Source: Escherichia coli (lineage in GTDB: Bacteria; Pseudomonadota; Gammaproteobacteria; Enterobacterales; Enterobacteriaceae). Taken from it: a DNA stretch of 1,552 bases. How positions within the stretch are numbered: the first letter of the stretch is position 1; the number at the start of each line of letters is the position of its first letter. Of this stretch, positions 1 to 1,489 are shown in pieces. The translations under genes were made by a program, and so were the position numbers. The DNA lies in assembly GCF_013315695.1 (NCBI RefSeq), contig NZ_CP054362.1, one strand, 5' to 3'. A model generated the notes under the pieces. It saw only the letters and a program-made list of their open reading frames with translations, made no database searches and was not told the origin of the DNA.

Positions 1-50
1 CCTGTCGCATCCAGGGTGACACAACGTTGTCGCATCCTGGATGCGACAAC
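1..50. repeat. Two tandem ~25-bp imperfect direct repeats (1-25, 26-50); the second unit is a perfect 25-bp palindrome (gttgtcgcatcc-t-ggatgcgacaac). Candidate Rep operator or iterons.
   Basis: Read directly: units 1-25 and 26-50 match at 19 of 25 positions. Arms 26-37 and 39-50 are exact reverse complements. Each unit has a CCWGG (Dcm) site at its centre (11-15 ccagg, 36-40 cctgg). Further GTTG/CAAC-type palindromic motifs lie at 21-30 (acaacgttgt) and 54-66 (caaca-agg-tgttg). The function is inferred from position upstream of the rep-like gene. Confidence 0.55.
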
Positions 51-135: not shown

Positions 136-612
136 ATGTTTATTGATTCAGAAAAACGACTGAAACAACTTTCAGATGAGGCAAAGAAAAACACCGAGGA
201 TCTCGAAGAAGCAAAGAAGAATTCAAGGTTTACACAGGTATCCCCAAAAGGTTGGGAACGCGTTCGAGAGCTGCTGAAGGATAGCCAAGGCATATCAGCA
301 CTGAAGCTGTACTCATTTTTAGCGGAGCATATCGATCCTACGTGTGGCGCTGTCGTTGCGGATCAGCAATTCCTAGCTGAAAAACTTGGAGTTAGCAGAA
401 GCACAATTATTCGTTGGCTCAATTACTTAGAATCAAAAAATGCATTAGTTAGAATCCCCGTTGCTGGTAAGGTTTGTGCGTATGCCCTCGATCCACATGA
501 AGTCTGGAAGGGATACAACACTACGAAAAACCATGCAGCATTTGTCACTAAAACACTGGTCAACAAAGACGGTGATATTCAGCGCCGAATCATGGCCATG
601 TTTTCAAATTGA
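136..612 (+). CDS. repA: Small winged-helix replication initiator protein (RepA/RepL-like), 158 aa, about 18 kDa
   Basis: Only ORF with a proper RBS and ATG start, ending in TGA at 610-612. Its GC content is clearly lower than the downstream DNA. A helix-turn-helix motif is visible at residues ~77-100 (QQFLAEKLGVSRSTIIRWLNYLES, nt 364-435), followed by a wing-like beta region (VRIPVAGKVCAYALDPHEVWKG). Iteron-like repeats sit directly upstream. The Rep call and the symbol are inferred from architecture and motif resemblance, not from a search. Confidence 0.8.
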   Translation: MFIDSEKRLKQLSDEAKKNTEDLEEAKKNSRFTQVSPKGWERVRELLKDSQGISALKLYSFLAEHIDPTCGAVVADQQFLAEKLGVSRSTIIRWLNYLESKNALVRIPVAGKVCAYALDPHEVWKGYNTTKNHAAFVTKTLVNKDGDIQRRIMAMFSN

Positions 613-948
613 GCCAGCGGCAGGCGGACAATCAGGGGCTACGTGTTAACGTTCTGACCATGATTGTCTATCCTGCATTGCTCTTTTGCCGCCTCAAAAT
701 CCCTTGCGTGTTTTTGCTCCCCGATCTCCAGAACGACCGAGCCGCCACGGTTCCGGCAGCGCCTTGAGCGCAACCGGAAACCGTCTGGGGAGAACCCCAG
801 ACCCCCATCGCTGTAACACCGACGGTCTACGACCACCTACCAACCGAGTGACTGCCTGTACCGTGCAAATGGGCTTTGCAGGGGGCTGGCGCGGTTCCTG
901 GCGACCTGAAAGCCCCTGGCTAGGGGTATCGGCGCGCCTGACCTCCTG

Positions 949-969
949 AAACGCTCTGTAAGCGTTTTT
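949..969 (+). terminator. Hairpin aaacgct-ctgta-agcgttt followed by tt; weak candidate intrinsic terminator or single-strand structural element
   Basis: 7-bp stem (949-955 pairs with 961-967), 5-nt loop, T-run 965-969. The stem is AT-rich and lies ~340 nt downstream of the rep stop, so a terminator role is uncertain. Confidence 0.2.
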
Positions 970-979
970 CGCGCCTTCC

Positions 980-995
980 ATGCCCTGACGGGCAT
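980..995. other. Hairpin atgccc-tgac-gggcat (6-bp stem, 4-nt loop)
   Basis: Exact inverted repeat read from sequence; function unknown. Possibly part of a single-strand initiation or priming signal. Confidence 0.3.
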
Positions 996-1106
996 TTAAA
1001 CCCCGCCTCGTGCGTCTGAGAGCTTCTGAGCGCGTTTGAAGGGCTATCTGACGACTCATCCCCGAAAGAACAACAGCGGAATCACCGACAACATGCGAGA
1101 GGTGGC

Positions 1107-1168
1107 ACCGCTCGCCGCAGCCCCAGCGACCGAACGTTAGTGAGCGAGTGGGCGAGGAAGCGGAAGAG
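1107..1168. other. ColE1/pMB1-like conserved non-coding segment, matching the block just downstream of the ColE1 replication origin; candidate lagging-strand priming (primosome assembly) region
   Basis: accgctcgccgcagcc...gtgagcgag...gcgaggaagcggaagag closely matches the pBR322/pUC backbone sequence as I remember it. No RNA I/RNA II-like sequence precedes it. The priming-site function is an inference. Confidence 0.45.
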
Positions 1169-1204
1169 AACCGGAAACCACATTGAGCACGTACGCACTG
1201 ATAC

Positions 1205-1229
1205 GGGGTGTCGGGGCGAAGCCCTGACC
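1205..1229. repeat. Left arm of a perfect 25-bp inverted repeat (ggggtgtcggggcgaagccctgacc)
   Basis: Exact reverse complement of 1434-1458, separated by 204 bp. Confidence 0.9.
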
Positions 1230-1397
1230 AGATGGCAAACGGAATATCGTCGCGGGTGACGGTATTACATTTGCACATCCTGTCCCGATTTCTGCGGGGG
1301 TTAACGGTGAACGGACGGCAAAAAACGTGCAGGAGCTGTTGAACGTGAAAACCACGAAATCTGGCAAAAATCACGGCTGGCGAGGCTTGCAGAGGAG

Positions 1398-1458
1398 TAA
1401 GCCAGTATACACTCCGCTATCGCTACGTGACTGGGTCAGGGCTTCGCCCCGACACCCC
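1398..1458 (-). other. ColE1/pMB1-type oriT (bom) nick region; predicted nick on the minus strand near 1400-1403 (CTGG/CTTA on that strand)
   Basis: The minus strand reads gggtgtcggggcgaagccctgacccagtcacgtagcgatagcggagtgtatactggctta, nearly identical to the pBR322 bom/nic region as I remember it. Nick position is by analogy with ColE1 relaxase (MbeA) cleavage. No relaxase gene is present in the window. Confidence 0.6.
1434..1458. repeat. Right arm of the perfect 25-bp inverted repeat; this arm belongs to the ColE1-type bom/oriT homology
   Basis: Exact reverse complement of 1205-1229. The sequence corresponds to the bom-proximal pBR322 segment gggtgtcggggcgcagccatgacc with a few substitutions. 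Confidence 0.9.
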
Positions 1459-1460
1459 CA

Positions 1461-1489
1461 AAGGGCGTTGCGTTGCGCGCAACACCCTT
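1461..1489. repeat. Imperfect inverted repeat containing a perfect 12-bp palindrome GTTGCGCGCAAC (1472-1483)
   Basis: The 12-mer is self-complementary. Flanking aaggg (1461-1465) and ccctt (1485-1489) extend the dyad, with a duplicated gttgcg on the left arm. Confidence 0.7.

Follow-up and report, generated by a model that had tools for sequence, protein, structure and literature searches.

A candidate R1/R100-type G site downstream of repA in a 1552-bp pKL1-type plasmid of Escherichia coli

The DNA analysed here, which we call the window, is the 1552-bp contig NZ_CP054362.1 of Escherichia coli (assembly GCF_013315695.1), a complete plasmid of the pKL1 type in which repA is the sole convincing gene. 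The subject of this study is a conserved, structured element in its non-coding part which, we think it likely, is a G site, that is, a single-strand initiation signal depending on the DnaG primase, homologous to that of plasmids R1 and R100. A preliminary description of this sequence had pointed to a cluster of three short hairpins in the GC-rich non-coding part, 300-380 nt beyond the repA stop codon, and had offered three roles for it without ranking them: a single-strand initiation site, a transcription terminator or a small-RNA structure.

Results

The locus

The window and the type plasmid pKL1 (NC_002145.1) share 94.3% identity; the translated repA is the same as that of pKL1 at 159/159 positions (158 codons and the stop). 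Plasmids of 1552 bp with 100% identity to it number in the dozens and come from E. coli, E. fergusonii, Klebsiella and Enterobacter. The replicon is of a RepA (helix-turn-helix) type of 1.5 kb, not IncFII, and in pKL1 oriV is located upstream of rep (PMC3832669). The conserved element covers about 125-135 nt, window 872-995, with profile matches extending to about 1004, and its informative strand is the minus strand (Table 1). The predicted priming site lies 260 nt downstream of repA, and extension of the primer would run in the direction of repA transcription.

Table 1. Coordinates of the features discussed in the text (window positions; for the minus-strand element, the 5' end is at the higher coordinate)
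Feature	Position	Strand	Remarks
repA	136..612	+	from the list of open reading frames; protein is pKL1 RepA
Predicted priming-start block CCCCCTGCAAAGCC	872..886	-	CTG at 881-879
Predicted primer RNA pppAGGGGGCUGGCGCGGUUCCUGGCGACCU	880..907	+	putative; length assumed from the 28-nt G4 primer
Spacer	887..912	-	semi-conserved TTTCAGG (family TCATAG) and GGAACCGCGCC (family GGAAC[A/C]GCGC), from alignments
Small hairpin I' (hairpin 1)	913..926	-	CCCCT-agcc-AGGGG
Unpaired GATA linker	927..930	-	family consensus GA[T/A][A/G]; CCGA invariant in alignment A2
Stem-loop II	931..975	-	45 nt; GGCGCG (975-970) pairs with CGCGCC (936-931); interior variable
Inner hairpin (hairpin 2)	949..967	-	within the interior of stem-loop II; lineage-specific
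Unpaired GGAA linker	976..979	-	part, with adjoining bases, of the conserved block CATGGAAGGCG; almost without variation in alignment A2 and in the anchored parse
Stem-loop III (hairpin 3)	980..995	-	ATGCCC-gtca-GGGCAT; most conserved hairpin of the family
IncI1/R64-type oriT	1202..1291	+	nick region TTGCACATCCTGTCCCG; 90-92% identical to DNA directly upstream of nikA in IncI1 plasmids
ColE1/pBR322-type oriT	1398..1465	-	nick region TATACTGGCTTA; matches small mobilizable ColE1-type plasmids

A fourth stem encloses the second hairpin

The three hairpins are present as first described, pairing cccct with agggg (913-917/922-926, hairpin 1), aaacgct with agcgttt (949-955/961-967, hairpin 2) and atgccc with gggcat (980-985/990-995, hairpin 3). 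Folding energies were compared with those of 200 dinucleotide shuffles. Taken alone and folded as DNA, hairpin 2 (949-967) is the most stable single hairpin (z -4.2), hairpin 3 (980-995) reaches -6.4 kcal/mol (z -2.9) and hairpin 1 (913-926) is weak (z -1.6, 19/200 shuffles as good). Positions 900-1010 of the plus strand gave -42.5 kcal/mol when folded as RNA (z -2.7, 3/200 shuffles equal or better) and a z of -2.9 when folded as DNA, while the minus strand from 868 to 1000, folded as DNA, gave a z of -3.1; 0/200 shuffles were as good in either DNA fold.

Every fold contained a fourth stem, unlisted in the preliminary description, in which 931-936 pairs with 970-975 (GGCGCG/CGCGCC). It encloses hairpin 2, which is therefore the tip of a 45-nt stem-loop, and it is the best-supported pairing of the cluster. 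The cluster as originally delimited corresponds to the 5' two-thirds of the element; the start block (872-886), the spacer (887-912) and the enclosing stem were left out of it.

The element belongs to a family found beside unrelated replicons

A sensitive search with window 860-1050 returned 757 plasmid records, mostly pKL1-like, and the region is kept at a coverage of at least 80% in 592 plasmid records. Some matches fall in the non-coding parts of unrelated replicons. In an IncN/FII-like plasmid (L002) and in pEc631_3 (L237) the match is downstream of a RepA-family gene, at a distance of about 450 bp; in Arsenophonus plasmids it is upstream of rep genes; Sodalis pSG1 and an IncF plasmid also have one. 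The core common to these relatives is TATCGGCGCGCC ... TTTTCGCGCCTTCCATGCCCTGACGGGCAT. In R100 the counterpart is GCCTTCCATGCCGCTGATGCGGCAT. It falls in non-coding DNA between repA and the gene that follows, about 360-500 bp past the oriR region with its DnaA box and AT-rich stretch, which is itself downstream of repA. At least 5000 plasmid records have this R100 version; among them is R64, whose copy lies near its replicon and is 94% identical.

To enlarge the family, viral contigs and one genome from each species were scanned with sequence patterns. This produced mostly chance matches; the true relatives were separated by an nhmmer profile and amounted to 51 distinct sequences after removal of duplicates. 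Leaving out the pKL1-type sequences, the profile still matches window 872-1002 on the minus strand (E 3.9e-13); without the R100-type sequences it matches R100 at 40449-40521 (E 1.8e-9); and a profile built from the filamentous phages only matches both the window and R100 (E 5e-8 and 4.5e-13, respectively). Since these leave-out profiles recover the pKL1-type and R100 copies, the family relationship is not circular.

The members share one plan. The 5' half consists of a hairpin ATGCC(C/GC/T)-loop-GGCAT, the sequence GGAA and a stem-loop of 42-45 nt with a GC-rich closing stem. The 3' half consists of GA(T/A)(A/G), often a short variable hairpin, a spacer of about 35 nt in which TCATAG-like and GGAAC(A/C)GCGC motifs occur, and (C)CCTGC-N-A-R-R-CC. 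The outer conserved blocks are CATGGAAGGCG, CGCCGA[T/A][A/G] and CCTGC-N-A-R-R-CC.

In IncX4 plasmids (L001 3383-3438, L239 2497-2556) a truncated copy of the pKL1-type element and its flank (window 948-1048) is found upstream of rep, at a distance of about 800 bp. These copies have a mutated stem-loop III and lack both the 3' arm of stem-loop II and the start block. The IncX4 copy seems to be a scar left by recombination and not a functional site; such matches had first suggested an element linked to origins, and they were left out of the evidence for function.

Two stems are maintained by compensatory changes

Stem-loop III is present in 49 of the 51 family sequences, as ATGCCC/GGGCAT (25), ATGCCGC/GCGGCAT (14), ATGCC/GGCAT (9) or ATGCCT/AGGCAT (1): the five outer pairs are kept and the inner ones vary with compensation. 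For the closing stem of stem-loop II, anchored counts over the 51 sequences gave 249/255 cells paired, versus 61-150/255 when the partner was shifted. Pair 4 may be GC, CG or TA and pair 5 GC, CG or AT. On alignment A2 the same stem is 91% paired, versus 26-62% when slid, and 13 cells are changed on both sides, versus 4.2 in shuffles (0/500). The closing variants comprise GGCGG/CCGCC, GGCGCG/CGCGCC, GGCCG/CGGCC, GGCCA/TGGCC, GGCTG/CAGCC, GGCTA/TAGCC, GGCGA/TCGCC, GGCGAC/GTCGCC, GGCGAAA/TTTCGCC, GGCGCAA/TTGCGCC and GGCGGTT/AACCGCC, and several distinct pair types occur in different sequence backgrounds. The length of stem-loop II is 42-45 nt in 50/51 sequences, while its interior is free to vary.

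The same division is seen at close range. Among 11 distinct pKL1-type variants, there is no change in stems III and II, in either linker (GGAA, GATA) or in CTGCAAAGCC, while the loops and the interior of stem-loop II vary; in stem-loop III only loop position 988 changes. Hairpin 2 changes at 950, 952 and 953 without compensation, its stem is broken in pKL1 itself (AAACGCTTACAGAGGCTCT), and the interior of stem-loop II is wholly different in the R100 and filamentous-phage copies. At hairpin I' the pKL1-type plasmids show changes in the loop (918, 920) and an occasional stem mismatch (916). Other short hairpins occupy this position elsewhere: CCGGC-gtaa-GCCGG in R100, CCGC-gaa-GCGG in L270, CCCGC-gaa-GCGGG in L249 and CTCCCG-tatt-TCGGGAG in L338. 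A hairpin is missing there from the main filamentous-phage type, and other members have GAA or AAA loops. We had considered hairpin 1 as a pKL1-specific insertion and rejected this, as R100-type and other members have a hairpin at that place. The family comparison, one of the checks suggested at the outset, thus backs two of the three stem-loops of the element, III and II. Of the hairpins first described, hairpin 3 is conserved throughout the family, hairpin 1 keeps its position with a variable sequence, and hairpin 2 is lineage-specific.

Invariant outer parts around a variable middle are the pattern that a two-part signal with a spacer-like interior would show. The G site reportedly has two essential domains with a dispensable internal domain between them (Tanaka et al. 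1994), and a stem-loop II of constant length and variable interior fits this layout.

A block identical to the primer start of phage G4

The minus strand reads CCCCTGCAAAGCC from 885 to 872. Within it, CTGCAAAGCC (872-881) occurs once in the window, where 0.01 occurrences are expected, and once in phage G4, at 3996-4005; the G4 record annotates the primer RNA at 3970-3997 and the complementary-strand origin at 3998. The E. coli DnaG starts at 3'-GTC-5' (PMC5934617, citing mutational work on G4), and the corresponding 5'-CTG-3' is present on the template strand at the predicted start, at 881-879 within CTGCAAAGCC. In the family, CTGC-N-R-R-R-C is found 42-63 nt after stem-loop II in 42/51 sequences. 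Because of the identity with the G4 primer start, the specificity of DnaG and the CTG block of these family members, we predict that a primer would start opposite T880 with pppAGGGGGCUGG and run to higher coordinates.

Immediately 3' of the start block the minus strand shows further conservation: GCACGG(T/A)AC...GGTAGGTGGTCGTAGACCGTCGGTGTTACAGCGATG (800-868) is common to the window and the two plasmids with a match downstream of a RepA-family gene (L002 and L237), and it extends beyond the end of the family profile. A 7-bp hairpin, tctgggg-agaa-ccccaga, is found at 783-800.

In filamentous phages the element lies on the gene strand

Which strand is the template? Thirteen of the collected loci, from the E. 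coli chromosome, Xenorhabdus and uncultivated viral contigs, contain Zot-family and secretin genes as detected by tblastn (L095, L081, L116-L119, L216, L080, L094, L188, L051, L120 and L302; to these we add L362, 7001-7284). In 13/13 the template orientation of the element is on the gene strand, and in 10/13 the element is within about 200 nt downstream of the secretin gene. The Xenorhabdus griffiniae locus (L302) has three copies. In an annotated E. coli prophage (L362) the genes come in the usual order, from the replication protein through the single-strand binding protein, the major coat protein and Zot to the secretin, and the element follows; all the annotated phage genes of this series are on one strand, the same as that of the element. 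A search for named filamentous phages found no deposited phage genome matching the element.

Phages of the Ff type package the gene strand and have their complementary-strand origin in the region after gene IV. As the element stands on the packaged strand after the secretin gene, it has the position and strand of such an origin, and in the filamentous phages this is presumably what it is. For the plasmid, we take the minus strand as the template strand because the CTG block and the asymmetric linkers read sensibly only there, and because of the gene-strand placement in the phages.

Discussion

The minus strand of window 872-995 is, we believe with good though not full confidence, a plasmid-type G site, a DnaG-dependent single-strand initiation signal homologous to that of R1/R100. 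What carries this reading is the structure of the element, its conservation and covariation, its homology to the R100 element, the G4 start block and the strand specificity in phages; dependence on primase, the exact start site and the process served are predictions made from these. Of the roles first put forward for the hairpins, single-strand initiation is thus the one that the homology with R100, the CTG block and the phage strand favour. Some plasmids are known to carry sites that recruit DnaG (PMC4595007).

The closest known system is the site of R1/R100. The order of parts is the same: the hairpin ATGCC..GGCAT, GGAAGGCG, a GC-closed stem-loop of 43-45 nt, CGCCGA, a small hairpin and CCCTGC..A.CC. 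The orientation to the rep gene is also the same, with the primer extended away from rep. The window differs in lacking TACTG directly after the small hairpin, and no relation is seen in the spacer or in the interior of stem-loop II. The replicons are arranged differently as well: R1 has the order repA, oriR, G site, whereas in the window the origin is upstream of rep and the site downstream. The R1/R100 G site is reportedly primase-dependent and situated about 400 bp downstream of oriR (Masai and Arai 1989; Nomura et al. 1991; Tanaka et al. 1994), and from its position we take the R100 homologue of our element to be presumably this published site.

The complementary-strand origin of phage G4, oric, with its relatives in St-1, alpha3 and phiK, is a more distant counterpart. 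Like the element of the window, it has three template-strand stem-loops within about 130 nt. GATAC precedes the hairpin nearest to the start (stem-loop I), and the two have the same CTGCAAAGCC, where the G4 primer begins opposite the T of CTG. In G4 this CTG is 3 nt after stem-loop I, so that the primer copies that hairpin, whereas the gap in the window is about 30 nt. G4 hairpin I is left free of SSB (the protein that coats single-stranded DNA) and is thought to be recognised by primase (PMC13037366). We rejected membership of the element in the G4 oric family itself, given the absence of overall similarity and a CTG that is not immediately 3' of the hairpin; blastn of a phage collection gave no microvirus match, only mislabelled pKL1-like records and noise. 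Tanaka and colleagues are likewise reported to have seen no similarity between G4 and plasmid G sites beyond such short blocks.

Several points weigh against the identification of the element as a G site. The equation of the R100 homologue with the published G site is presumptive and relies on position, and for the pKL1-type plasmid the function is deduced from sequence. Overall similarity to G4 oric is nil (family profile against G4, filters off, E<=100), the 10-nt block and GATAC being what is shared. After hairpin I' the window has CTTTCAGG, whereas G4 and R100 have (C)TACTG directly after the hairpin; the only CTG is about 30 nt beyond hairpin I', which makes the start site less certain, and CTGC-N-R-R-R-C is missing within the searched range in 9/51 family sequences. 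The sequences used for covariation are related, so that the counts overstate the number of independent events. Finally, because the hairpins are palindromic, folding by itself is strand-neutral and cannot pick the strand.

An origin or promoter in single-stranded DNA used by the host RNA polymerase, like the minus-strand origin of M13/f1 or Frpo of the F plasmid, is the alternative that survives best, and it is unlikely. In the Ff phages (M13, f1, fd) the post-secretin position is that of the RNA polymerase-dependent minus-strand origin; the element occupies the same position on the packaged strand of related phage loci, where it would do the same job of converting single strand to duplex, and its strand specificity and hairpins would fit an RNA polymerase origin equally well. 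However, the Ff origin has no sequence relation to the element, which is homologous to that of R100 and has a DnaG-type start block identical to the primase start of G4. In addition, no sigma-70-like hexamers were found in the window, by a scan that assumes duplex promoters.

Sites of the phiX174 type, at which PriA (n') recognition is followed by loading of DnaB and DnaG, are also hairpin-containing single-strand initiation signals of non-coding plasmid DNA, as in ColE1 (PMC4595007) and pBR322, and the window has a pBR322-like segment of its own at 1062-1165. That segment is a separate region and, if the plasmid has a site of this type, the likelier place for it. The element discussed here groups with the R100, IncI and IncF sites and has the CTG block, while phiX174-type sites need PriA and primosome assembly; primosome assembly sites are not known to share such conserved blocks. 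We therefore regard a PriA site at 872-995 as very unlikely.

Could the element be a decayed G site, carried along by recombination and non-functional in this plasmid? The IncX4 copies are indeed truncated, and the hairpin-plus-TACTG arrangement of R100 and G4 is missing here. Against this, the blocks and stems are intact, they are invariant in the 11 pKL1-type variants while their neighbours vary, and the region is kept in the 592 plasmid records. A relic seems to us very improbable.

We find it highly improbable that hairpin 2 and the following T run (949-969, plus strand) form an intrinsic terminator for repA transcription, as the preliminary description allowed. The most stable single hairpin of the cluster does have a 7-bp stem followed by TTTTT on the repA strand. 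Nevertheless, pKL1-type plasmids do not keep the stem intact, pKL1 itself has it broken, the interior is unrelated in other family members, and the hairpin is 337 nt beyond the repA stop; nor was it called by the terminator scan, whose two terminator-like sites are both elsewhere in the window.

A small structured RNA, for example an antisense copy-number regulator, is hardly credible: clustered conserved stem-loops and a covarying stem would suit it, but Rfam 15 gave no match at E<=1 on both strands of the whole window, the promoter scan found no promoter-like site anywhere in the window, and an element that stands beside unrelated replicons and always on the packaged strand in filamentous phages points to a signal at the DNA level rather than to a regulator belonging to a single replicon.

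If the element is a G site, its action may be pictured as follows. The minus strand would become single-stranded through helicase unwinding from the RepA origin upstream of repA or, alternatively, when the plasmid enters a recipient by way of the ColE1-type oriT, whose nick is in the same strand. SSB would coat the strand, while stem-loops III (980-995), II (931-975) and I' (913-926) would stay folded and so display the conserved unpaired blocks CATGGAAGGCG, CGCCGATA and CCCTGCAAAGCC. DnaG would then bind without a primosome and start the primer pppAG... opposite T880 of the CTG (881-879), and DNA polymerase III would extend it toward higher window coordinates.

What process would such priming serve? 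With a geometry like that of R1, the primer being directed away from the origin and rep, the site could start the leading strand after helicase unwinding; just as well, it could prime lagging-strand synthesis at a fork arriving from the opposite side. In conjugation it could prime the complementary strand in the recipient after ColE1-type mobilisation. The vegetative and conjugative roles may both hold.

The transfer modules bear on this choice. The strand of the ColE1-type oriT is the same as that of the priming-site template, and its match in p52 is upstream of mobC and the mbe genes. From the position of these mob genes, the minus strand is taken to be the transferred strand, and the priming site would enter the recipient within about 400-530 nt of the leading end. 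The second oriT-like module, of the IncI1/R64 type, is in opposite orientation on the same plasmid, so that either strand may be transferable depending on the helper plasmid. A perfect inverted repeat of 25 nt, GGGGTGTCGGGGCGAAGCCCTGACC (1205-1229/1434-1458), is the part common to both oriT types. The plasmid would thus seem to consist almost entirely of borrowed cis-acting signals around one small rep gene.

Tentatively, and with somewhat less than even confidence, we propose that the R100-type G site is one widely mobile, unannotated cis-acting module, and that in the pKL1-type plasmid its main role is establishment in the recipient after mobilisation rather than vegetative replication. The first part is suggested because the element probably acts as complementary-strand origin in a group of uncultivated filamentous prophages of enterobacteria (E. 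coli, Xenorhabdus), unmatched among deposited phage genomes, because it accompanies IncF, IncI and other replicons in thousands of plasmids, and because cryptic plasmids of about 1.5-5 kb have acquired it; the second because the site is on the strand that the ColE1-type oriT would transfer.

The identification changes no concept, primase-dependent G sites having been known since the 1980s, and the authors of the pKL1 work may already have noted the site. It does propose a concrete function for about 130 of the roughly 940 non-coding nt of one of the smallest and commonest E. coli plasmids. Furthermore, the family definition, conserved blocks and two covarying stems, could serve as a model for annotating such priming sites, so far unmarked, in thousands of plasmids as well as in filamentous prophages.

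Other features of the plasmid

Window 1062-1165 resembles the sequence just downstream of ori in pBR322/ColE1 (CGCTCGCCGCAGCC...GAGCGAGGAAGCGGAAGAG) and also matches other small plasmids and 36-kb plasmids. The pBR322/ColE1 segment presumably holds primosome assembly (n') sites, and window 1062-1165 is possibly a second single-strand initiation signal, of another type.

Nested inverted repeats are found upstream of repA at window 3-50 (TGTCGCATCCAGGGTGACACAAC / GTTGTCGCATCCTGGATGCGACA), with a perfect 12-nt palindrome at 26-50; these presumably correspond to the operator/origin repeats of RepA that were described for pKL1. Within them, GCATCCTGG is similar to the core ATCCTG of the IncP/IncI nick region, a likeness that may be a coincidence.

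Lastly, pKL1-like contigs of about 0.5-1.6 kb (L265, L276, L277, L298, L316, L317) are present in assemblies labelled Streptococcus parasanguinis, Streptomyces capoamus, Flagellimonas pelagia, Rhizobium wenxiniae, Pseudomonas akapageensis and Parendozoicomonas. NC_004833.1, labelled Corynebacterium renale, is 100% identical over the query, and 'Escherichia phage' records of 1.4-1.9 kb are also pKL1-like. These records under foreign or phage labels most likely reflect contamination or mislabelling.

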